64,000 bases of DNA. Origin: Squalus acanthias. Lineage: Eukaryota. Shown one piece after another: positions 2,441 to 63,593 of the stretch. Both the position numbers and the translations under genes were made by a program. The first letter of the stretch is position 1. Each line of letters starts with the position of its first letter. The stretch covers positions 98,396,001 to 98,460,000 of the forward strand of contig CM059431.1 of the NCBI GenBank assembly GCA_030390025.1, in the 5' to 3' direction. The notes under the pieces are model-generated. The model searched no databases, was not told the origin of the DNA, and saw only the letters and a program-made list of their open reading frames with translations.

Positions 2441-2670
2441 TGAACCGATGATGGGGAAGAGTGCAGTAGATGCAGTGTGATTGGACAATTCAAGGTCCCA
2501 CAGTGGCAAGGGATGTAGAATGGTCGAATGTTCCAGCACAGAAACAGGCCATTTGGCCCTTTGAGTCTGTACTGGTCTTTCTTCTCCACATGAGCCACCC
2601 AGTCTAATCCCGCTCACTCCCCAGAACCTTTACTATTCATCCTTTATTCTCCCTAAGTCCCTTTTAAAAT

Positions 2671-2890
2671 AAATGTGAGAAGTCGCACAACACCAGGTTA
2701 TAGTCCAACAGCTTTATTTGAAATCACAAGCTTTCGGAGCGCTGCTCCTTCGTCAGGTGAAGAGATGTCTTCACTTCACCTGACGAAGGAGCAGCGCTCC
2801 GAAAGCTTGTGATTTCAAATAAAACTGTTGGACTATAACCTGGTGTTGTGCGACTTCTCACATTTGTCCACCCCAGTCCAACACCGGCCT
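2671..2890. mobile_element. Penelope-like element terminal repeats in inverted (palindromic) arrangement
   Basis: Arms 2671-2762 and 2774-2865 are reverse complements with one mismatch. The same sequence occurs at 3738-3865 and at 4441-4530 next to a GIY-YIG fragment. Confidence 0.8.
2776..2812 (+). ncRNA. Minimal type I hammerhead ribozyme motif (Penelope-associated)
   Basis: UCAC-CUGACGA-a-GGAGC(agc)GCUCC-GAAA-GCUU-GUGA: intact core, stems I and II pair, palindromic stem III. A mirror copy is on the minus strand at 2724-2760. Confidence 0.65.
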
Positions 2891-3737
2891 TGTAAAATAA
2901 TTGATGGATGCAGATAATTCCACATTCTAACCAGCCTCTGCGTAAAGTCATGTTTCTAACCTCTGCTTTTAATTGTTTTAATTGTCTGAAAGTTGTCTCA
3001 CTGATCAGTGGGAATAATCTACCTCCATTTACCTTCTCAAAATGGTGAAGACCTGCACTGAATCCTTGCCCTTCTCAGCTGGAGCGAGTAACTGTGACTC
3101 CGCTCATCTCGAAGAGCAGCTGATGAGGGAGCTCAGGGAGATTTGTGATTCACAAATTGGGGCCGGAAGGGGGACCGTGGGCTCATCAGTTTGCGTTTGT
3201 TTTCGACCAAACTCGTACTCATTTGTAGGATTCGGCGGTTGTCCATTTCTATGAGGTTTCGGGTGGAGTGGAGTGTATATGTTGTCAGACGCAAGGTATG
3301 GCGATTGTGTGGGCCAGGCTGGATGGACCAGAGGCTCTTTTCCTGTCCGTCATTGCTCGTATGTTTGTAAATATTTCCAGCTGTGCTCAGTATGGGGAGA
3401 GATTCCATGGACCCTTCCGGGTGCACTGGGATCGCACCTTGCAAAATCCAGCTCAGCCAACCCATAATCTTCAATCCATAAAATGTAATAGATGGAAACC
3501 CCGGTCTGGGAGTGGGCTACCTTTGTGATATGGGCCTTACAGGGAGCTGTGTATCGGGACTTCTGCCCCGAAGTGTTTGCAAGTTAACTCGTCGGGATTT
3601 TAGCTTCTTGTTTATTTCCCTTCTCGAGCTCCACATTCGAGTAACGGCAGGTGGTGATTGACAGGAAAGTGTAGCTTTAATGGGATGGATTTGGTGCCAA
3701 TTCAATCAGGAACAGACACGGATATTTACCTGCTAAC

Positions 3738-3865
3738 TTACCTGACGAAGGAGCGAACTGCTTCGAAAGCTTGTAAAATTAAATAAATCTGTTGGACTAT
3801 AACCTGGTGTTGTGCGACTTCTCATTTTTGTCCACCCCAGTCCAACGCCGGCATCTCCACATCAT
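3738..3865 (+). mobile_element. Penelope-like terminal repeat copy with hammerhead motif (3738-3776)
   Basis: UUAC-CUGACGA-a-GGAGC(gaacu)GCUUC-GAAA-GCUU-GUAA followed by the same gttggactataacctggtgttgtgcgacttctca sequence as the 2.7-kb copy. Confidence 0.75.
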
Positions 3866-4110
3866 GACGGATATTTACGTTATTGGTTCACGGCTTCTAA
3901 CGACTCGATTGCCAGGGGATATTTGTTGGAGTTTTCCTGTTTATAAAACAATGTTATTTTTGATCCGAATCGAAGCTTTTTTTTTAGCCCTGTGTTACTC
4001 TCCCATGTGTTTGCCAAACTGAGAACAGTAGAGGTCTTAACGGAAACTCTTGGAACTGAATAAAGATTTGCGGTTTTCAAATATTTGGTTCCATTCCTTT
4101 GTGATTCAGT

Positions 4111-4132
4111 TGAGAGAGAGAGAGAGAGAGAG
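4111..4132. repeat. (GA)n microsatellite
   Basis: Direct run of gagaga. Confidence 0.9.
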
Positions 4133-4440
4133 CGTGAGAAGGAGACACTGAGATACTTCATGTCATAGTTCTCTGGGAGAATCATTTTATAATCCGGTCC
4201 TCAGTAAGCACAGACAATGAGATGGTCAGTGAGAAGGGGGTAGAGTAGGGTTGTGGTTAAACGGGAGGTCAAATCCACCCATGGCAGTTTGAGAATTTGA
4301 ATTCAGTTTTTTTTTAAATCTGGAAATAAAAAGCTGACACAGTCCTCACCGCTCCCGCCATCCCCACTTACCCCAGACAACCGCCTATAGCGGGCAAATG
4401 GCGCTGACTGCTTCTCATCACCACAGGCCTCAATTATAAA

Positions 4441-5002
4441 AGTGAGAAGTGGCACAACACCAGGTTATAGTCCAACAGTTTTATTTGAAATCACAAGCTT
4501 TCGGAGCTGCTGCCCCTTCGTCAGGTGAAGTGAAGGAATACGAATCGGCAAAGCATATATAGACAGAGAACAATGCATGTGTAACGTACAATGTCAGATG
4601 ACTACATTTAATCCTCCTAACTGCCTTTCGTCACACCTCGGCAGAGAAACAATCAGGTCAGCCAGGAAGGCACCACATCAAAGACATAGCAAGATACAAC
4701 TGAGACAATGAGGTGGGGTTATAGGGGGTCTAATGTGTCAAATGCTGCAGTCTGTATGGAAAACCATAAACTTTAAAATTTTTACCTTTTTTTTAAACTG
4801 GAAATCACATCTGTGAACAAGCCAACGACAACTCGAGTCTGGATGACTCTACGTCATGTAGCGTGACATGAACCCAAGATCCCGGTTGAGGCCGTCCTCA
4901 TGAGTGCGGAACTTGGCTATCAGTTTCTGCTCGATGATTTTGCGTTGTCGTGTGTCTCGAAGGCCACCTTGGAGAACGCTTACCCGCAGATCCGAGGCTG
5001 AA
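4441..5002 (-). mobile_element. Penelope-like retroelement 3' fragment (GIY-YIG endonuclease C-terminus, downstream repeat, hammerhead motif at 4491-4528)
   Basis: ASDLRVSVLQGGLRDTRQRKIIEQKLIAKFRTHEDGLNRDLGFMSRY* fits the E...GLN end of PLE GIY-YIG domains, followed on the same strand by the terminal repeat. Confidence 0.8.
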
Positions 5003-5539
5003 TTATAAAGGCGCCACTTAAACCGTATTCGGCTCACTGGCTTTCAGGCATTTCAAGCAGCTATTCGCACCTCGTTAAAGTGCGAATGCTAATCCCCCCC
5101 CCCCCCCACCGCCTTCAGTCACCACCCCGCCCACCCATCCTTACCCGGTCCGGCATATATGTGACTCCAATCCCACACCAACGTGTTCATTAATAGAAAG
5201 AAAACAGAGTTAAACAATAGGCGACTGGACAAGTTTTCTACACAGAGCAAGAAAGTTCCTGGTTTGATCGCAGGTCCGTGCCCACAGGGTCAACACTGCT
5301 GGGTTAGGGATGGTGATGCCTCTGTAGTCAAACAGCCCTCTGAGCCTCACTGTCAAGACTAATGATGGGATGGTGGCCACTTGGGCAAGGTACTGGAGGC
5401 AGTGCCCAAGGACCCCTGCCCCAGCAAGGAGACAACACCTTCCGGATACTGGGGAAGGGCCATGGGCAAGGCAGCAAACCTAACTCTGCCAATGATGTGT
5501 GAGAGTCTCCTAACGGTGTCCGTGTTTTATCTCCCACAG

Positions 5540-5599
5540 GCCTGCCATGGATGTACATCCAGTTCCAAGTGCGACTGCAGTGGTGTGAAAGGAGAAAAG
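5540..5599 (+). CDS. COL4A5: Collagen alpha-5(IV) exon 2 (7S domain) ACHGCTSSSKCDCSGVKGEK
   Basis: cag|...|gtaag, 60 bp; Cys pattern matches the alpha5(IV) N-terminus (human [20 protein letters not shown]). Confidence 0.92.
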
Positions 5600-7076: not shown

Positions 7077-10000
7077 AACACACGGCGCAATAGACAACAC
7101 ACGACGCAATAGACAACGCACGGGGCAATAGACAACGCACGGGGCAATAGACAACGCACGGGGCAATAGACAACGCACGGCGCAATAGACAACGCACGGG
7201 GCAATAGACAACACACGGTGCAATAGACAACGCACGGCGCAATAGACAACACACGGCGCAATAGACAACACACGGCGCAATAGACAACGCACGGGGCAAT
7301 AGACAACACACGGTGCAATAGACAACACACGGCGCAATAGACAACGCACGGCGCAATAGACAACGCACGGGGCAATAGACAACACACGGTGCAATAGACA
7401 ACGCACGGCGCAATAGACAACACACGGTGCAATAGACAACACAAGGCAATAGACAACACACGGCGCAATAGACAACACACGGCGCAATAGACAACACAAG
7501 GCAATAGACAGCACACGGTGCAATAGACAACACGCGGCGCAATAGACAGCACGCGGCGCAATAGACAGCATGCGGCGCAATAGACAGCACGCGGCGCAAT
7601 AGACAGCACGCGGCGCAATAGACACGGTTCAATAGACAACACACGGTGCAATAGACACGGTGCAATAGACAACACACGGCGCAATAGACAACACACGGTA
7701 CAATAGACAACGCACGGTGCAATAGACAACGCACGGCAATAGATAACACACGGCGCAATAGACAACGCACGGCAATAGACAACGCACGGTGCAATAGACA
7801 ACGCACGGTACAATAGACAACGCACGGTGCAATAGACAACGCACGGCAATAGATAACACACGGCGCAATAGACAACGCACGGCAATAGACAACACATGTA
7901 CAATAGACAACACACGGCGCAATAGACAACACACGGCGCAATAGACAACACACGGCGCAATAGACAACACACGGCGCAATAGACACGGTGCAATAGACAA
8001 CACACGGCGCAATAGACACGGTGCAATAGACAACACACGGCGCAATAGACAACACACGGTACAATAGACAACGCACGGTGCAATAGACAACGCACGGCAA
8101 TAGATAACACACGGCGCAATAGACACGGTGCAATAGACAACACATGTACAATAGACAACGCAGGTACAATAGACAACACACGGCGCAATAGACAACACAC
8201 GGCGCAATAGACAACCCACGGCGCAATAGACACGGTGCAATAGACAACACACGGTGCAATAGACAACCCACGGCGCAATAGACACGGTGCAATAGACAAC
8301 ACACGGTGCAATACACACGGCGCAATAGACAACACACAGCACAATAGACAACGCACGGTACAATAGACAACACACGGCGCAATAGACACGGTGCAATAGA
8401 CAACACACGGTACAATAGACAACACACGGTGCAATAGACAACACACGGTACAATAGACAACACACGGTACAATAGACAACACATGGTGCAATAGACAACA
8501 CGGTACAATAGACAACACGGTACAATAGACAACACAAGGCAATAGACAACGCACGGCACAATAGACAACGCACGGCGCAATAGACAACCCACGGCGCAAT
8601 AGACAACCCACGGCGCAATAGACAACCCACGGCGCAATAGACAACCCACGGCGCAATAGACAACCCACGGCGCAATAGACAACCCACGGCGCAATAGACA
8701 ACCCACGGCGCAATAGACAACCCACGGCGCAATAGACAACACACGGTGCAATAGACGGTGCAATAGACAACACACGGTGCAATAGACACGGTGCAATAGA
8801 CAACACACGGTGCAATAGACAACACACGGTGCAATAGACAACACACGGTGCAATAGACAACACACGGTGCAATAGACGGTGCAATAGACAACCCACGGTG
8901 CAATAGACAACACACGGTGCAATAGACAACACACGGTGCAATAGACGGTGCAATAGACAACACACGGTGCAATAGACACGGTGCAATAGACAACACACGG
9001 TGCAATAGACGGTGCAATAGACAACACACGGTGCAATAGACGGTGCAATAGACAACACACGGTGCAATAGACGGTGCAATAGACAACACACGGTGCAATA
9101 GACACGGTGCAATAGACAACACACGGTGCAATAGACGGTGCAATAGACAACACACGGCGCAATAGACAACACACGGTGCAATAGACACGGTGCAATAGAC
9201 AACACACGGTGCAATAGACGGTGCAATAGACAACACACGGTGCAATAGACACGGTGCAATAGACAACACACGGTGCAATAGACGGTGCAATAGACAACAC
9301 ATGGTGCAATAGACAACACACGGTGCAATAGACAACACACGGTGCAATACACACGGTGCAATAGACAACACACGGTGCAATAGACAACACACGGTGCAAT
9401 AGACAACACACGGTGCAATACACACGGTGCAATACACAACACACGGTGCAATACACACGGCGCAATAGACAACACACGGCGCAATAGACACGGCGCAATA
9501 GACAACACACGGCGCAATAGACACGGCGCAATAGACAACACACGGCGCAATAGACACGGCGCAATAGACAACACACGGTGCAATAGACAACACACGGTGC
9601 AATAGACACGGTGCAATAGACAACACACGGTGCAATAGACAACACACGGTGCAATACACACGGTGCAATAGACAACACACGGTGCAATACACACGGTGCA
9701 ATAGACAACACACAGCGCAATAGACAACACACGGCGCAATAGACAACACACGGCGCAATAGACAACACATGGTGCAATAGACAACACACGGCGCAATAGA
9801 CAACACACGGCGCAATAGACAACGCACAGCGCAATAGACAACACACGGCGCAATAGACAACACACGGCGCAATAGACAACACACGGCGCAATAGACAACA
9901 CACGGCGCAATAGACAACACACGGCGCAATAGACAACACACAGCGCAATAGACAACACACGGTACAATAGACAACACACGGTGCAATAGACACGGCGCAA

Positions 10001-10268
10001 TAGACAACACACGGCGCAATAGACAACACACGGCGCAATAGACAACACACGGCGCAATAGACAACACACGGCGCAATAGACAACACACGGCGCAATGCAC
10101 AACACACGGCGCAATAGACAACACACGGCGCAATGGGCAATGGACAACACACAACACACGGCGCAATAGACAACACACAACACACGGCGCAATAGACAAC
10201 ACACGGCGCAATACACAACACACGGCGCAATAGACAACACACGGCGCAATAGACAACACACGGCGCAA
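7077..10268. repeat. Minisatellite, 19-bp unit GCAATAGACAACACACGGC with 12-17-bp deletion variants
   Basis: Periodicity read directly; about 3.2 kb. Confidence 0.97.
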
Positions 10269-10609
10269 TGGCAAAATGCATGATTGTGCCACTTAAGCAT
10301 GATCTGATAAAATGATAGCAGCTTTTTTTTTTCCAAATAGAGAGGATTGTTGACACTTTTTGCAAACGATTTGAAGAGTTTACCTTTAGGGAGTTAGAAA
10401 CACAGCTTGTGATTTGCAATTGTCCCCAACATAGCTTCGAAGCTGTCCGTGTGAGTTGCATTGCGTCCTCCTAAATGTTTTGTTTTCTAATGTAAAGCTG
10501 ATGGAACATCTGAATTCCTTTATGACATTAGTCTTTACCAGTTTAAGGGCAAATTAACCTAAACAGTTAATAACTCATAACTCCTAAAGAAATAACTTGT
10601 AATCATACA

Positions 10610-16283: not shown

Positions 16284-16421
16284 GTAACCCTTGATCTCAG
16301 CATCGGATTAATCTGCAATTGATACACGTTTATAGAATGTTCCAGCACAGAAACCGGCCATTCAGCCCATCCAACCCATGCAAGCCTTTTTCTCCATTCT
16401 CCTACACGCTCTCCATACCTT

Positions 16422-19400
16422 GTAATATCCCACCCAGCCTAATCCCACTCTCCTGCTCATTCCCCGTACACTTTAATATCCCACCCAGTCTAATCCCACT
16501 CTCCCCCTCACTCCCCGTACCCTTTAATATCCCACCCAGTCTAATCCCACTCTCCTGCTCACTCCCCATACCCTTTAATATCCCACCCAGTCTAATCCCA
16601 CTCTCCCCCTCATTCCCCGTACACTTTAATATCCCACCCAGTCTAATCCCACTCTCCTGCTCACTCCCCATACCCTTTAATATCCCACCCAGTCTAATCC
16701 CACTCTCCCTCTCACTCCCCGTATCCTTTAATATCCCACCCAGTCTAATCCCACTCGCCCCCTCACTCCCTGTACCCTTTAATATCCCACCCAGCCTAAT
16801 CCCACTCTCCTGCTCACTCCCCATACCCTTTAATATCCCACCCAGTCCAATCCCACTTTCCCCCTCATTCCCCGTACACTTTAATATCCCACCCAGTCTA
16901 ATCCCACTCTCCTGCTCACTCCCCATACCCTTTAATATCCCACCCAGTCTAATCCCACTCTCCCTCTCACTCCCCGTATCCTTTAATATCCCACCCAGTC
17001 TAATCCCACTCGCCCCCTCACTCCACGTACCATTTCATATCCCACCCAGTCTAATCCCACTCTCCCCTCACTCCCCGTACCCTTTAATATCCCACCCAGT
17101 CTAATCCCACTCTCCTGCTCACTCCCCGTACCCTTTAATAACCCACCTAGTCTAATCCCACTCTCCCCCTCACTCCCCGTACCCTTTAATATCCCACCCA
17201 GTCTAATCCCACTCTCCCCCTCACTCCCCGTACCCTTTAATACCCCACCCAGTCTAATCCCACTCTCCTGCTCACTCCCCGTACCCTTTAATATCCCACC
17301 CAGTCTAATCCCACTCTCCCCTCACTCCCCTTACCCTTTAATATCCCACCCAGTCCAATCCCACTCTCCCCTCACTCCCCGTACCCTTTAATATCCCACC
17401 CAGTCTAATCCCACTCTCCTGCTCACTCCCCACACCCTTTAATACCCACCCAGTCTAATCCCACTCTCCTGCTCACTCCCCGTACCCTTTAATATCCCAC
17501 CCAGTCTAATCCCACTTTCCCCCTCATTCCCCGTACACTTTAATATCCCACCCAGTCTAATCCCACTCTCCTGCTCACTCCCCATACCCCTTAATATCCC
17601 ACCCAGTCTAATCCCACTCTCCCCTCACTCCCCGTACCCTTTAATATCCCACCCAGTCTAACCCCACTCTCCTGCTCACTCCCCACACCCTTTAATATCC
17701 CACCCAGTCTAATCCCACTCTCCCCTCACTCCCCGTACCCTTTAATATCCCACCCAGTCTAATCCCACTCTCCCCTCACTCCCCGTACCCTTTAATATCC
17801 CACCCAGTCTAATCCCACTCTCCCCTCACTCCCCGTACCCTTTAATATCCCACCCAGTCTAATCCCACTCTCCCTCTCACTCCCCGTACCCTTTAATATC
17901 CCACCCAGTCTAATCCCACTCGCCCGCTCACTCCCCACACCCTTTAATATCCTACCCAGTCTAATCCCACTCTCCTGCTCACTCCCCACACCCTTTAATA
18001 TCCCACCCAGTCTAATCCCACTCTCCTGCTCACTCCCCGTACCCTTTAATATCCCACCCAGTCTAATCCCACTTTCCCCCTCATTCCCCGTACACTTTAA
18101 TATCCCACCCAGTCTAATCCCACTCTCCTGCTCACTCCCCATACCCCTTAATATCCCACCCAGTCTAATCCCACTCTCCCTCTCACTCCCCATACCCTTT
18201 AATATCCCACCCAGTCTAATCCCACTCGCCCTCTCACTCCCCACACCCTTTAATATCCTACCCAGTCTAATCCCACTCGCCCCCTCACTCCCCACACCCT
18301 TTAATACCCCACCCAGTCTAATCCCAGCTCCCCCTCACTCCACGTACCCTTTCATATCCCACCCAGTCTAATCCCACTATCCCCTCACTCCCCGTACCCT
18401 TTAATATCCCACCCAGTCTAATCCCACTTTCCCACTCACTCACCGTATCCTTTAATATCCCACCCAGTCTAATCCCACTCTCCTGCTCACTCCCCGTACC
18501 CTTTAATATCCCACCCAGTCTAATCCCACTCTCCTGCTCACTCCCCGTACCCTTTAATATCCCACCCAGTCTAATCCCACTTTCCCCCTCATTCCCCGTA
18601 CACTTTAATATCCCACCCAGTCTAATCCCACTCTCCTGCTCACTCCCCATACCCCTTAATATCCCACCCAGTCTAATCCCACTCTCCCTCTCACTCGCCA
18701 TACCCTTTAATATCCCACCCAGTCTAATCCCACTCGCCCTCTCACTCCCCACACCCTTTAATATCCCACCCAGTCTAATCCCACTCTCCCTCTCACTCCC
18801 CATACCCTTTAATATCCCACCCAGTCTAATCCCACTTGCCCCCTCACTCCCCACACCCTTTAATACCCCACCCAGTCTAATCCCAGCTCCCCCTCACTCC
18901 ACGTACCCTTTCATATCCCACCCAGTCTAATCCCACTCTCCCCTCACTCCCCGTACCCTTTAATATCCCACCCAGTCTAATCCCACTTTCCCACTCACTC
19001 CCCGTATCCTTTAATATCCCACCCAATCTAATCCCACTCACCCCTCACTCCCCGTATCCTTTAATATCCCACCCAGTCTAATCCCACTCTCCCGCTCACT
19101 CCCCGTACCCTTTAATATCCCACCCAGTCTAATCCCACTCTCCCCTCACTCCCCGTACCCTTTAATATCCCACCCAGTCTAATCCCACTCTCCCCTCACT
19201 CCCCGTACCCTTTAATATCCCACCCAGTCTAATCCCACTCTCCCCTCACTCCCCACACCCTTTAATATCCCACCCAGTCTAATCCCACTCTCCCGCTCAC
19301 TCCCCGTACCCTTTAATATCCCACCCAGTCTAATCCCACTCTCCTGCTCACTCCCCACACCCTTTAATATCCCACACAGTCTAATCCCACTCTCCCGCTC

Positions 19401-20050
19401 ACTCCCCATAACCTTTAATATCCCACCCAGTCTAATCCCACTCTCCCCTCACTCCCCGTACCCTTTAATATCCCACCCAGTCTAATCCCACTCTCCCCTC
19501 ACTCCCCGTACCCTTTAATATCCCACCCAGTCTAATTCCACTCTTCCCTCACTCCCCGTACCCTTTAATATTCCACCCAGTCTAATCCCACTCTCCCCCT
19601 CACTCCCCACACCCTTTAATATCTCACCCAGTCTAATCCCACTCTCCCCTCACTCCCCGTACCCTTTAATATCCCACCCAGTCTAATCCCACTCTCCCCT
19701 CACTCCCCGTACCCTTTAATATCCCACCCAGTCTAATCCCACTCTCCCTCACTCCCCACACCCTTTAATATCCCACCCAGTCTAATCCCACTCTCCCCTC
19801 ACTCCCCGTACCCTTTAATATCCCACCCAGTCTGATCCCACTCTCCCCTCACTCCCCGTACCCTTTAATATTCCACCCAGTCTAATCCCACTTTCCCACT
19901 CACTCCCCGTATCCTTTAATATCCCACCCAGTCTAATCCCACTCTCCCCCTCACTCCCCGTACCCTTTAATATCCCACCCAGTCTAATCCCACTCTCCCC
20001 CTCACTCCCCACACCCTTTAATATCCCACCCAGTCAAATCCCACTCTCCT
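16422..20050. repeat. Minisatellite, 50-51-bp unit TAATATCCCACCCAGTCTAATCCCACTCTCCCCTCACTCCCCGTACCCTT
   Basis: Periodicity read directly; about 3.6 kb, roughly 70 units. Confidence 0.97.
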
Positions 20051-45170: not shown

Positions 45171-48106
45171 GTGCAGGACCGAGGGAGCGCTGCACTGTCA
45201 GAGGGGCAGTACTGAGGGAGCGCCGCACTGTCAGAGGGGCAGTACTGAGGAGCGCTGCACTGTCGGAGGGGCAGTACTGAGGGAGCGCCGCACTGTCAGA
45301 GGGGCAGTACTGAGGGAGCGCTGCACTGTCAGAGGGGCAGTACTGAGGGAGCGCCGCACTGTCGGAGGGGCAGTACTGAGGGAGCGCCGCACTGTCAGAG
45401 GGGCAGTACTGAGGGAGCGCTGCACTGTCGGAGGGGCAGTACTGAGGGAGACTGCACTGTCGGAGGTGCAGTACTGAGGGAGCGCTGCACTGTCAGAGGG
45501 GCAGTACTGAGGGAGCGCCGAACTGTCGGAGGGGCAGTACTGAGGGAGCACCACACTGTCGGAGGGGCAGTACTGAGGGAGTGCCGCACTGTCAGAGGGG
45601 CAGTACTGAGGGAGCGCTGCACTGTCGGAGGGGCAGTACTGAGGGAGCACTGCACTGTCGGAGGGGCAGTACTGAGGGAGCGCCGCACTGTCAGAGGGGC
45701 AGTACTGAGGGAGCACTGCACTGTCGGAGGGGCAGTACTGAGGGAGCGCTGCACTGTCGGAGGGGCAGTACTGAGGGAGTGCCGCACTGTCAGAGGGGCA
45801 GTACTGAGGGAGCGCTGCACTGTCGGAGGGGCAGTACTGAGGGAGCGCCGCACTGTCGGAGGGGCAGTACTGAGGGAGCGCTGCACTGTCGGAGGGGCAG
45901 TACTGAGGGAGCGCTGCACTGTCAGAGGGGCAGTACAGAGGGAGCGCCGCACTGTCGGAGGGGCAGTACTGAGGGAGCGCTGCACTGTCGGAGGGGCAGT
46001 ACTGAGGGAGCGCTGCACTGTCGGAGGGCAGCACTGAGGGAGTGCTGCACTGTCGGAGGGGCAGTACTGAGGGAGCGCTGCACTGTCAGAGGGGCAGTAC
46101 TGAGGGAGCGCTGCACTGTCGGGGGGCAGTACTGAGGGAGAGCTGCACTGTCGGAGGGGCAGTACTGAGGGAGCTCCGCACTGTCAGAGGGGCAGTACTG
46201 AGGGAGCGCCGCACTGTTGGAGGGGCAGTACTGAGGGAGCGCCGCACTGTCGGAGGGGCAGTACTGAGGGAGCGCCGCACTGTCGGAGGGTCAACACTGA
46301 GGGAGTGCCGCACTGTCAGAGGGGCAGTACAGAGGGAGCGCCGCACTGTCGGAGGGGCAGTACTGAGGGAGCGCTGCACTGTCGGAGGGGCAGTACTGAG
46401 GGAGCGCTGCACTGTCGGAGGGGCAGCACTGAGGGAGTGCTGCACTGTCGGAGGGGCAGTACTGAGGGAGCGCTGCACTGTCGGAGGGGCAGTACTGAGG
46501 GAGCGCCGCACTGTCGGAGGGGCAGTACTGAGGGAGCGCCGCACTGTCGGAGGGTCAACACTGAGGGAGTGCCGCACTGTCGGAGGGGCAGTACTGAGGG
46601 AGCGCCGCACTGTCAGAGGGGCAGTACTGAGGGAGCGCTGCACTGTCGGAGGGGCAGTACTGAGGGAGCACTGCACTGTCGGAGGGGCAGTACTGAGGGA
46701 GCGCTGCACTGTCAGAGGGGCAGTACTGAGGGAGCGCCGCACTGTCGGAGGGGCAGTACAGAGGGAGCGCCGCACTGTCGGAGGGGCAGTACTGAGGGAG
46801 TGCTGCACTGTCGGAGGGGCAGTACTGAGGGAGTGCCGCACTGTCGGAGGGGCAGTACTGAGGGAGCGCCGCACTGTTGGAGGGTCAACACTGAGGGAGT
46901 GCCGCACTGTCGGAGGGGCAGTACTGAGAGAGCGCCGCACTGTCAGAGGGGCAGTACTGAGGGAGCGCCGCACTGTCGGAGGGGCAGTACTGAGGGAGCG
47001 CCGCACTGTCGGAGGGGCAGTACTGAGGGAGCACCACACTGTCGGAGGGGCAGTACTGAGGGAGTGCCGCACTGTCAGAGGGGCAGTACTGAGGGAGCGC
47101 TGCACTGTCGGAGGGGCAGTACTGAGGGAGCACTGCACTGTCGGAGGGGCAGTACTGAGGGAGCGCTGCACTGTCAGAGGGGCAGTACTGAGGGAGCGCA
47201 GCACTGTCGGAGGGGCAGTACTGAGGGAGCGCCGCACTGTCGGAGGGGCAATACTGAGGGAGCACCACACTGTCGGAGGGGCAGTACTGAGGGAGTGCCG
47301 CACTGTCGGAGGGGCAGTACTGAGGGAGCGCCGCACTGTCAGAGGGGCAGTACTGAGGGAGCGCTGCACTGTCGGAGGGGCAGTACTGAGGGAGTGCCGC
47401 ACTGTCAGAGGGGCAGTACTGAGGGAGCGCTGCACTGTCGGAGGGGCAGTACTGAGGGAGCGCCGCACTGTCGGAGGGGCAGTACTGAGGGAGCGCCGCA
47501 CTGTCGGAGAGGCAGTACTGAGGGAGTGCTGCACTGTTGGAGGGGCAGTACTGAGGGAGCGCTGCACTGTCAGAGGGGCAGTACAGAGGGAGCGCCGCAC
47601 TGTCGGAGAGGCAGTACTGAGGGAGTGCTGCACTGTCGGAGGGGCAGTACTGAGGGAGCACTGCACTGTCGGAGGGGCAGTACTGAGGGAGCGCTGCACT
47701 GTCAGAGGGGCAGTACAGAGGGAGCGCCGCACTGTCGGAGAGGCAGTACTGAGGGAGCGCTGCACTGTCAGAGGGGCAGTACAGAGGGAGCGCCGCACTG
47801 TCGGAGAGGGCAGTACTGAGGGAGTGCTGCACTGTCGGAGGGGCAGTACTGAGGGAGCGCCGCACTGTCGGAGGGGCAGTACTGAGGGAGTGCCGCACTG
47901 TCGGAGGGGCAGTACTGAGGGAGCGCAGCACTGTCGGAGGGGCAGTACTGAGGGAGCGCCGCACTGTTGGAGGGGCAGTACTGAGGGAGCGCCGCACTGT
48001 CGGAGGGGCAGTACTGAGGGAGTGCTGCACTGTCAGAGGGTCAGTACTGAGGGAGCGCCGCACTGTCGGAGGGGCAGTACTGAGGGAGTGCTGCACTGTC
48101 GGAGGT
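45171..48106 (+). repeat. 33-bp SINE-derived minisatellite, about 2.9 kb (roughly 90 units)
   Basis: Preceded by SINE sequence ataatccaggctgaca; same unit as the 41395 and 62667 arrays. Confidence 0.97.
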
Positions 48107-51200: not shown

Positions 51201-51370
51201 GTAAGTTCACCTGTCGGCCCAACCGTCAGCGGGAAATGTGGTAAATACATTAACCAACTGAGCCGAGTTAATCTTCCAGATCCTGATCTTCATCCTTGTC
51301 TATATTAACAGATACTTCACCGGCTAAGGTCTTTTTCTGAATGAATGTTTGTTGTCTTTCTGCCCAATAG

Positions 51371-51475
51371 GTGACCCCGGGCTGCCAGGGGCCCCTGGCG
51401 TGCAAGGTGCTGTCGGACCGAAAGGTGATCCCGGTCCAACTGGGATAGGATTTCCGGGACCAACTGGTGTTAAAG
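51371..51475 (+). CDS. COL4A5: COL4A5 exon 28 (105 bp)
   Basis: (G)DPGLPG...[11 protein letters not shown](G); AG/GT. Confidence 0.95.
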
Positions 51476-62371: not shown

Positions 62372-63593
62372 AAAGAAACTTTCACAACCTCAGAACATCT
62401 CAAAGCGCTTCACAGCCAATGAAGTATTTTTGAGGTGTAGTCACTGTTGTAATGTAGGAAACGCGGCAGCCAATTTGCGCACAGCAAGCTCCCACAAACA
62501 GCAATGGGATAATGACCAGATCATCTGTTTCAGTGATGTTGATTGAGGGATAAATATTGGCCCCAGGACACCTCCCCTACTCTTCTTCGAAATAGTGCCA
62601 TGGGATCTTTTAGGACCACCTGAAAGGGCAGATGGTTTAACGTCGCATCTGAAAGACAGCACCTCTGACAGTGCAGCACTCCCTCAGTACTGCCCCCCCG
62701 ACAGTGCGGCGCTCCCTCAGTAGCGCCCCTCCGACAGTGCAGCGCTCCCTCAGTACTGCCCTTCCGACAGTGCAGTGCTCCCTCAGTACTGCCCCTCCGA
62801 CAGTGCAGTGCTCCCTCAGTACTGCCCCTCCGACAGTGCAGCGCTCCCTCAGTACTGCCCCTCCGACAGTGCAGGGCTCCCTCAGTACTGCCCCTCCGAC
62901 AGTGCAGGGCTCCCTCAGTACTGCCCCTCCGACAGTGCAGCACTCCCTCAGTACTGCCCCTCCGACAGTGCGGCGCTCCCTCAGTACTGCCCCCTCCAAC
63001 GGTGCAGCACTCCCTCAGTACTGCCCCTCCGACAGTGCAGCACTCCCTCAGTACTGCCCCTCCGACAGTGCAGCACTCCCTCAGTACTGCCCCTCCGACA
63101 GTGCAGCGCTCCCTCAGTACTGCCCCTCCCACAGTGTGGCGCTCCCTCAGTACTGCCCCTCCGACAGTGCGGCGCTCCCTCACTACTGCCCCTCCGACAG
63201 TGCGGCGCTCCCTCAGTACTGCCCCTCCGACAGTGCAGCGCTCCCTCAGTACTGCCCCTCCGACAGTGCAGCGCTCCCTCAGTACTGCCCCTCCGACAGT
63301 GCAGGGCTCCCTCAGCACTGCCCCTCCGACAGTGCAGCGCTCCCTCAGTACTAACCCTCCGACAGTGCAGCGCTCCCTCAGTACTGCCCCTCCGACAGTG
63401 CAGCACTCCCTCAGTACTGCCCCTCCGACAGTGCAGCGCTCCCTCAGTACTGCCCCTCCGACAGTGCAGCACTCCCTCAGCACTGCACTGGAGTGTCAGC
63501 CTGGATTTTTGTGCTGAAGTCTCTGGAGTGGGACTTGAACCCACAACCCTCTGACTCGGAGGCGAGGGTGCTGCCCACTGAGCCACGGCTGAC
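62372..63593 (-). mobile_element. Near full-length Deu-domain tRNA-SINE with expanded internal 33-bp array (62667-63487)
   Basis: A-box TGGCTCAGTGG and B-box GGTTCAAGTCC in the head, about 25 repeat units, then Deu domain and L2-like tail. Confidence 0.85.

Follow-up and report, generated by a model that had tools for sequence, protein, structure and literature searches.

The 64,000-nucleotide stretch of Squalus acanthias DNA considered here (GenBank assembly GCA_030390025.1, contig CM059431.1, positions 98,396,001 to 98,460,000; hereafter the window) contains four short hammerhead ribozyme motifs, clustered just upstream of what looks like exon 2 of a type IV collagen-like gene. These motifs are very probably minimal hammerhead ribozymes (min-HHRs) of a Penelope-like element (PLE), brought into the collagen intron by three insertions and lying there as dead-on-arrival passengers without a demonstrated effect on the host. 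An earlier reading of this DNA, made from its letters alone (the sequence-only reading), had also recognized minimal type I hammerheads of PLEs, and had gone on to propose that two of them dimerize in the collagen pre-mRNA and cleave the intron. The first part of that proposal stands, given the element context and the published features of such ribozymes; the second part is not supported.

Four hammerhead motifs in three insertions

The pattern CTGANGA-N(8-30)-CGAAAGCT has exactly four matches in the window, at 2729-2756 on the minus strand, at 2780-2807 and 3742-3771 on the plus strand, and at 4496-4524 on the minus strand; dinucleotide shuffles of the window held 0.01 such motifs on average, and none of 100 reached four. 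Extended by four flanking bases on each side, the matches become units of 37-39 nucleotides (nt), which we assign to copies A, B, C and D in order of position. All four share the core CUGACGA...CGAAAGCU, with one unpaired A after CUGACGA, then a stem II of 5 base pairs (bp) and a loop of 3-5 nt. Copies A, B and D have UCAC/GUGA as their 4-bp stem I and copy C has UUAC/GUAA, while stem II is GGAGC/GCUCC in A and B and contains one G.U pair in each of the others (GGAGC/GCUUC in C, GGGGC/GCUCC in D). On its 3′ side each motif continues with GAA, the palindrome AGCU and U17, so that the predicted cleavage triplet is CUU, and the 19-nt stretch 3′ of the motif occurs exactly four times in the window. 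The sequence-only reading had placed four hammerheads here, with the two forms of stem I, the wobble changes in stem II of copies C and D, a stem III consisting of the AGCU palindrome with its CUU triplet, and predicted plus-strand cleavage after 2808 and 3772; the sequence agrees with it on each of these points.

The four motifs are not independent, as they belong to three insertion events (A with B, C, and D). The first is a head-to-head pair, in which copy A (2671..2767, minus strand) is the inverted arm with the short 3′ end and forms an inverted repeat with the direct arm, copy B (2768..2889, plus strand), which bears about 28 nt of one-sided 3′ tail (2862-2889). The motif of copy A lies at 2724-2760 on the minus strand, with cleavage predicted after 2728 as read on that strand, and that of copy B at 2776-2812 on the plus strand, with cleavage predicted after 2808. 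The pair is bordered by an imperfect target-site duplication, TT(T/G)TAAAAT (2662..2670 on the left, 2890-2898 on the right; 8 of 9 positions agree). The inverted repeat is near-perfect over 97 bp and folds at -179.2 kcal/mol, against -53.5 +/- 4.6 kcal/mol for shuffled sequences (z = -27.6). Copy C (3730..3866, plus strand) is a 137-nt, 5′-truncated PLE 3′ end with the full tail and belongs to the UUAC/GUAA subfamily; its motif occupies 3738-3776 on the plus strand, with cleavage predicted after 3772, and its duplication, ACGGATATTTAC, is an exact repeat of 12 nt (3718-3729 and 3867-3878). Copy D (4441..5003, minus strand) is a 5′-truncated copy of about 560 nt in the short 3′ form without tail. 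It retains the last ~50 codons of the reverse transcriptase-endonuclease (RT-EN) reading frame (4852-5003, minus strand, with the stop codon at 4849-4851) and has its hammerhead motif in the 3′ untranslated part, at 4491-4528 on the minus strand; its flanks read as a duplication of AATTATAAA (4432-4440 and 5001-5009).

No tandem array was found over 2600-5100, the sequence between copies B and C is unique, and the insertions have separate target-site duplications. [quoted passage not shown] Retrozymes are reported from one cartilaginous fish among 31 vertebrates in the latter, a 2026 preprint. Within the window, the lone compensatory change separates two repeat subfamilies and not four independent lineages.

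Copy C has an empty counterpart. In a 658-nt contig of DNA run X1, which carries the same organism label, position 3717 is joined directly to 3867; this is copy C's empty site, in which the duplication is present once and the depth equals that of the unique flanks. Copy C is therefore missing from some chromosomes, or the assembly took one haplotype only, and the empty site marks it as a recent insertion and not as a fixed or conserved part of the gene. As an observation in its own right, the stretch from 3718 to 3878 resembles an insertion polymorphism, which suggests recent activity of the PLE family.

In the DNA run, the summed depth of contigs is very high over four further stretches (2400-2680, 3246-3433, 4186-4440 and 5126-5200). 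These stretches, which adjoin the PLE copies, are other repeat families, and the intron is a patchwork of repeats.

The element family and its conserved motif

We searched the window's own 3.7-Gb assembly and counted exact patterns in it. The exact motif occurs 78,604 times genome-wide, against 384 for a reversed control. A copy B query of 124 nt gave 47 scored matches, the best 30 at 89-98% identity, with query positions 1-122 of the 124 matched and, in many cases, an adjoining partner on the opposite strand. The 482 nt upstream of the copy D motif, a query that does not include the ribozyme, gave 2,621 first-look candidates; scoring 40 of these produced 43 matches, 39 of which are other near-full-length copies at 97% identity spanning query positions 8-482. 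Upstream, the copies extend by anything between 49 and more than 1,500 nt, a variable 5′ truncation. Three loci of 9 kb have about 2.5 kb in common, ending at the same 3′ end, and contain a long open frame; in one copy it has 716 amino acids, matches Pfam RVT_1 (E = 2.6e-8; 34.3 bits against a cut-off of 29.6) and ends in the residues that copy D still encodes. The distance of the motif from the stop codon is about 320 nt in the 3′ direction; it lies 54 nt from the short 3′ end and about 95 nt from the long one.

Where loci have clear borders, they show target-site duplications and a head-to-head inverted partner. The position of the head-to-head junction differs by locus and sometimes falls within the ribozyme, and the 3′ extension of about 40 nt is found on only one of the two arms. 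By hand count, some 60 of the first 100 listed genome motifs stand in minus/plus pairs, so the A/B pair is the usual product of this family and not a local peculiarity. The genome coordinate lists also contain identical motifs on the same strand, 3,046 and 3,136 nt apart; direct pseudo-long terminal repeats (pseudo-LTRs) are suggested by such pairs only, at spacings of ~3.05-3.14 kb. Contigs of a run under another organism label cover ribozyme-bearing parts with 2-8 differences per ~80 nt, and the family is thus common to more than one species label. None of the runs containing this stretch is registered as RNA. In runs X8, X9 and X16, which are presumed to be RNA and may be DNA, contigs cover parts of the repeat only and not the unique intron.

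This anatomy is that of known elements. Min-HHRs were described in the flanking repeats of metazoan PLEs by Cervera & de la Pena 2014 (PMC4209133) as type I motifs with a helix I of 4-5 bp, no helix III and a palindrome at 15.2-16.2; an additional nucleotide stays unpaired between A9 and G10.1, and the G10.1-C11.1 pair is conserved. Many are solitary, opposite-strand pairs lie 100-700 bp apart, and the consensus families differ by compensatory changes. The window family has each of these published sequence features, likewise near the 3′ end or pseudo-LTR of an element that encodes a reverse transcriptase (RT). Craig et al. 2021 (PMC8557442) further describe PLEs as frequently 5′-truncated, with an inverted 5′-truncated copy adjoining their 5′ end and a tail of 30-40 bp at a single end; in vitro work from 2024 attributes this tail to reverse transcription that starts at two internal sites (PMC11167929). 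With the canonical EN+ PLEs (Penelope/Poseidon, Neptune, Nematis; PMC8557442, PMC11167929) the window family has in common the single RT frame, the 5′ truncation, the inverted partner, the 30-40-nt tail at one end, the target-site duplications and the hammerhead near the 3′ end. There are differences as well. Helix II is 5 bp long here versus 7-8 bp in the Schistosoma motifs; min-HHRs occur in several fishes, coelacanth (~4,000), Xenopus (~9,000) and reptiles, and the 78,604 exact motifs are about ten times the numbers in coelacanth and Xenopus, which were themselves judged remarkable; and the family is far more uniform within its genome than the 'extreme variability' described would suggest (all PMC4209133, which in its excerpted part does not name this host group).

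Conservation was examined in two samples. In the first, 23 distinct variants from the retrieved loci, picked for an exact core, were aligned, leaving out one variant truncated at a junction (L014). Of their stem cells 98.0% are paired, compared with 32-46% in slid controls, a value reached by none of 500 shuffles, and two stem pairs show changes on both sides. The core C3 U4 G5 A6 N7 G8 A9 ... G12 A13 A14 is invariant among these variants, which were chosen with it fixed. Column 15, unpaired and situated between A9 and G10.1, has A in 22 of the 23, the G10.1-C11.1 pair (columns 16-33) is G-C in every one, and AGCU followed by U or C is present in all except one. The second sample was anchored on the tail, with no selection for the core and with seven loci left out that overlapped the window or each other; here the exact motif is present in 61 of 85 copies, the insertion junction cuts about 10 others, and the rest have point changes. 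Among copies found through the upstream coding part (loci L032 onward), 31 of 38 have the exact motif. An apparent amplifying lineage without the ribozyme, represented by three loci with a broken core (L011, L012, L013), was rejected; it is a single locus that is present three times, 99.3-99.7% identical over 3.1 kb.

Retroelement copies decay neutrally after insertion, and selection is therefore visible only in what the active lineages carried. At pair 2.3/1.3 of stem I, C-G (43,493 copies) and U-A (25,167 copies) both form large lineages. The U.G combination is found in 2,170 copies, mostly of one sequence type and often in inverted pairs, and represents an amplified intermediate lineage; the C/A mismatch is found in 449 copies scattered over all types, as decay predicts. 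N7 and loop II vary freely: N7 is C in 39, G in 44, A in 14 and U in 3 of the first 100 motifs (hand count), and loop II ranges from 3 to 9 nt genome-wide, with many sequences and the stem kept. Elsewhere in the core, and in the AGCU palindrome, changes do not exceed what random decay would produce. G8 deviates in 1,343 copies, mostly by ACGA>ACAA, a CpG transition, and position 15.2 deviates in 490 copies, which is the decay level. Together, the genome-wide counts support selection on stem I pairing in active elements. The covariation to which the sequence-only reading drew attention is real, yet it is a trait of the retroelement family and not of the collagen locus.

The copies are often embedded in other repeats. 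In loci L032 (213-955 and 2209-2688) and L063 (3408-3680), frames of other reverse-transcriptase-type repeats adjoin or host PLE copies; they include an FADD-type RT motif region and recurring ...GHRFK/GHQYM... frames, and PLE copies often lie inside other retroelements. Separately, some motif pairs recur with identical spacing 64-104 kb apart (C1:2938218/2938395 and C1:3041806/3041983; a second set at C1:6982754/6984870 and C1:7046593/7048709), which suggests segmental duplications that slightly inflate the copy counts.

Proposed catalysis by dimers and its alternatives

How the motif would serve the element can be outlined from its anatomy and from the literature. The PLE family, with a min-HHR in its 3′ untranslated or pseudo-LTR region, has amplified to tens of thousands of copies, three of its target-primed insertions landing separately within 2.3 kb in the window (the A/B head-to-head pair, the 137 nt of copy C and the 560 nt of copy D). 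In the life cycle, two identical motifs may pair through AGCU into a double hammerhead, a step that is taken from the literature and whose importance is debated; the two might be tandem units of a single long transcript or belong to separate transcripts. Between the copies, helix III and the two stem I helices would form, and each strand would be cut after U/C17. From antiparallel pairing we infer that stem I is intermolecular in an AGCU-held dimer, with each cleavage site and 3′ strand of stem I placed at the core of the partner: U16.1 of one strand would come to lie beside the other's core, and its nucleotide 17 and 3′ half of stem I would have to pair with the 5′ half of the partner's stem I. 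This geometry agrees with the double hammerhead described by Forster et al. 1988 (cited in PMC4209133). An intermolecular stem I means that a dimer would need partners of the same subfamily. Dimer cleavage was reported by Lunse, Weinberg & Breaker (RNA Biol 2016/17, as cited in PMC6765202).

Several results weigh against a catalytic PLE motif of this kind. In vitro, single min-HHRs were inactive and dimers had low activity (PMC4209133). Nearest-neighbour energies, which leave out tertiary contacts and are only indicative, give the double hammerhead -19.1 kcal/mol for B+B, -19.9 for D+D, -11.1 for C+C and -8.8 for B+C, and alternative dimer folds of -22 to -29 kcal/mol are favoured over it in all cases; for B+B the minimum free energy of the dimer is -28.9 kcal/mol. 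No curated model confirms the hammerhead motif. Rfam gave no match at gathering score over the whole window and no hammerhead family among the 8 matches at E <= 10 on 2600-4650, and none of its hammerhead models (type I, II, III, HH9, HH10) reached the gathering threshold, an absence that is expected because the motif has no helix III hairpin. As to the element, and in a departure from the canonical EN+ PLEs, profile searches did not confirm a GIY-YIG endonuclease: the C-terminal 219 amino acids matched no Pfam family at E <= 10, a PDB search of this domain returned only two irrelevant matches (E = 1.7), and the GIY/YIG-like stretch VVYLIRC...WYIGET...R..H was recognized in it by eye only. Finally, none of the three 9-kb loci contains an upstream direct hammerhead of the kind a pseudo-LTR would provide.

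Further adverse points follow, and most of them favour an alternative that is possible though rather unlikely, in which the fold is kept as a structured, non-catalytic element, either as a 3′ RNA module for the RT/endonuclease or for the DNA form, with no self-cleavage in vivo. The motif is contiguous with a 3′ module of about 80 nt that is conserved among the subfamilies at least as well as the motif itself and is even more invariant, so that conservation alone does not single out the ribozyme. Helix III shows no covariation, with no compensated 15.2 variant among 100 listed, and neither does C3-G8, for which there is no U3-A8 core lineage but only 17 scattered double variants genome-wide; the dimer helix and the active-site pair are thus supported by conservation and not by covariation. 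The covariation in stem I is essentially one evolutionary path, multiplied by amplification. None of the 47 copy B matches starts at the predicted cleavage site (query position 41). In Anolis PAc, the one PLE to have been reconstituted in vitro, ribozyme mutants insert normally and no RNA-seq reads begin or end at the cleavage site (PMC11167929), and the Naiad and Chlamys PLEs thrive without hammerheads (PMC8557442).

What speaks against a purely structural role is the pattern of variation. The positions that vary between lineages (N7, loop II, H17 as U or C, and wobble or compensated pairs) are those that a hammerhead tolerates, while the catalytic nucleotides change at decay level only, and a generic protein-binding hairpin would not need CUGANGA...GAAA. 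In addition, other PLE hammerheads cleave in vitro, with C3/G8 rescue (PMC11167929).

We consider it improbable that the local role of the A/B pair is that of a long hairpin of double-stranded RNA, entering editing or small-RNA pathways for instance, and not that of a ribozyme. The 97-bp inverted repeat is near-perfect, and the best Rfam scores on 2600-4650 come from several microRNA-precursor models, all far below gathering (MIR821, a plant family, scores 95 bits against 249). These matches are due to the A/B inverted repeat and are of the generic kind that long hairpins give to unrelated families; moreover, with some 60 of the first 100 family motifs forming such pairs, the hairpin is a by-product of the insertion mechanism.

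The collagen gene

The host gene lies on the plus strand, with 30-odd Gly-X-Y exons from 13475 to 63992. Upstream of these, a 60-nt exon at 5540-5599 (plus strand, AG/GT borders) encodes a Cys-rich, 7S-type sequence (...KCDCSGVKGEK) and does not belong to the element. Exon sizes of 90, 45, 45, 63 and 54 presumably resemble the start of vertebrate COL4 genes. The sequence-only reading had assigned the cluster to collagen intron 1; it is intronic or upstream, just ahead of the presumed exon 2 at 5540-5599, and exon 1 was not located. Because the gene is on the plus strand, copies B and C are sense to it, intronic or upstream.

This orientation invites a host function, in which B and C would pair through AGCU, cleave intron 1 and lower or modulate collagen expression, and which we regard as very improbable. 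The two sense copies are 962 nt apart, both have an intact core and an NUH triplet, and conserved intronic hammerheads do exist in amniote genes (PMC6155905). Their cleavage of the collagen pre-mRNA as a B+C dimer is nevertheless not supported, and three independent lines disfavour it. First, copy B is sequestered with copy A in the 97-bp hairpin (-179.2 kcal/mol, z = -27.6), and because A is transcribed before B, B would be double-stranded as it emerges. Second, the stem I of B and that of C are of different subfamilies, so that one of the two 4-bp stem I helices of a B+C dimer would read U-A, C.A, A-U, C-G, with a C.A mismatch; the resulting double hammerhead, at -8.8 kcal/mol, compares with -19.4 kcal/mol for two monomers and -23.4 kcal/mol for the best dimer fold. 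Third, copy C is missing from the DNA contig with the same organism label. Beyond these, the copies are unremarkable members of a family of 78,604, there is no sign of conservation specific to this locus, and related retrozymes are reported to be depleted from introns in Xenopus (10.64898/2026.07.22.740005).

The comparison with amniote intronic hammerheads (RECK, CTCL, DTNB; de la Pena & Garcia-Robles 2010, via PMC6155905) points the same way. They too are type I, intronic and sense, and are thought to derive from retroelement ribozymes, but they possess a hairpin at helix III together with loop-loop contacts, work as monomers and are conserved across classes at orthologous sites (PMC6155905). 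The window motifs, unlike these, have neither helix III nor loop contacts, the repeat that carries them is young, and one allele is without one of them; a domesticated intronic hammerhead was accordingly not found here, as copy C is not fixed and has no helix III hairpin.

A variant of this idea, to which we give very little credence, is that the solitary sense copy C pairs in trans with abundant PLE transcripts of its own subfamily and cuts the collagen pre-mRNA in carriers only. Weakest of all is the notion of a chance resemblance to hammerheads, in line with the absence of an Rfam match and scarcely credible given four motifs where 0.01 were expected, 78,604 in the genome against 384 in the reversed control, and the presence of all published min-HHR features together with the PLE context.

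The collagen gene contains other repeats. A very large tandem array of a 29-nt unit, with ~140 copies at ~90% identity (51352-~55400), starts beside or over a Gly-X-Y frame (51370-51450), and further long minisatellites occupy collagen introns at 7077-10269 and 16418-20000+, one with a 19-nt unit in ~179 copies and the other with a 51-nt unit in at least 70. A satellite of ~33-nt register occurs in both orientations inside the gene, its arrays at 45466-48105 being inverted copies of 62695-63486 (92-94% complementary, up to 792 nt).

For the collagen gene, then, the cluster is probably of no importance, as it consists of ordinary transposon fragments. If the trans cleavage by copy C did take place, it would amount to a ribozyme insertion that segregates naturally and affects a collagen gene of the basement membrane, and the ~78,600 motifs, many of them intronic, could tax host transcripts genome-wide, dependent on transposon expression.

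The hammerhead type itself is already known, as the minimal hammerhead of PLEs, and a literature search found no description of this family. The present analysis adds the scale (~78,600 motifs), the youth of the family and a genome-wide compensatory path in stem I. As a resource its value is modest: the PLE minimal hammerheads of this genome form a population that is unusually large and young, in copies that are ~97% identical. Within it, the stem I path is cleanly resolved, leading from C-G through the amplified U.G intermediate to U-A, with the mismatched combination never amplified. This path is evidence, direct and on a population scale, for selection on the pairing in active elements, and it is relevant to whether PLE hammerheads serve the element.

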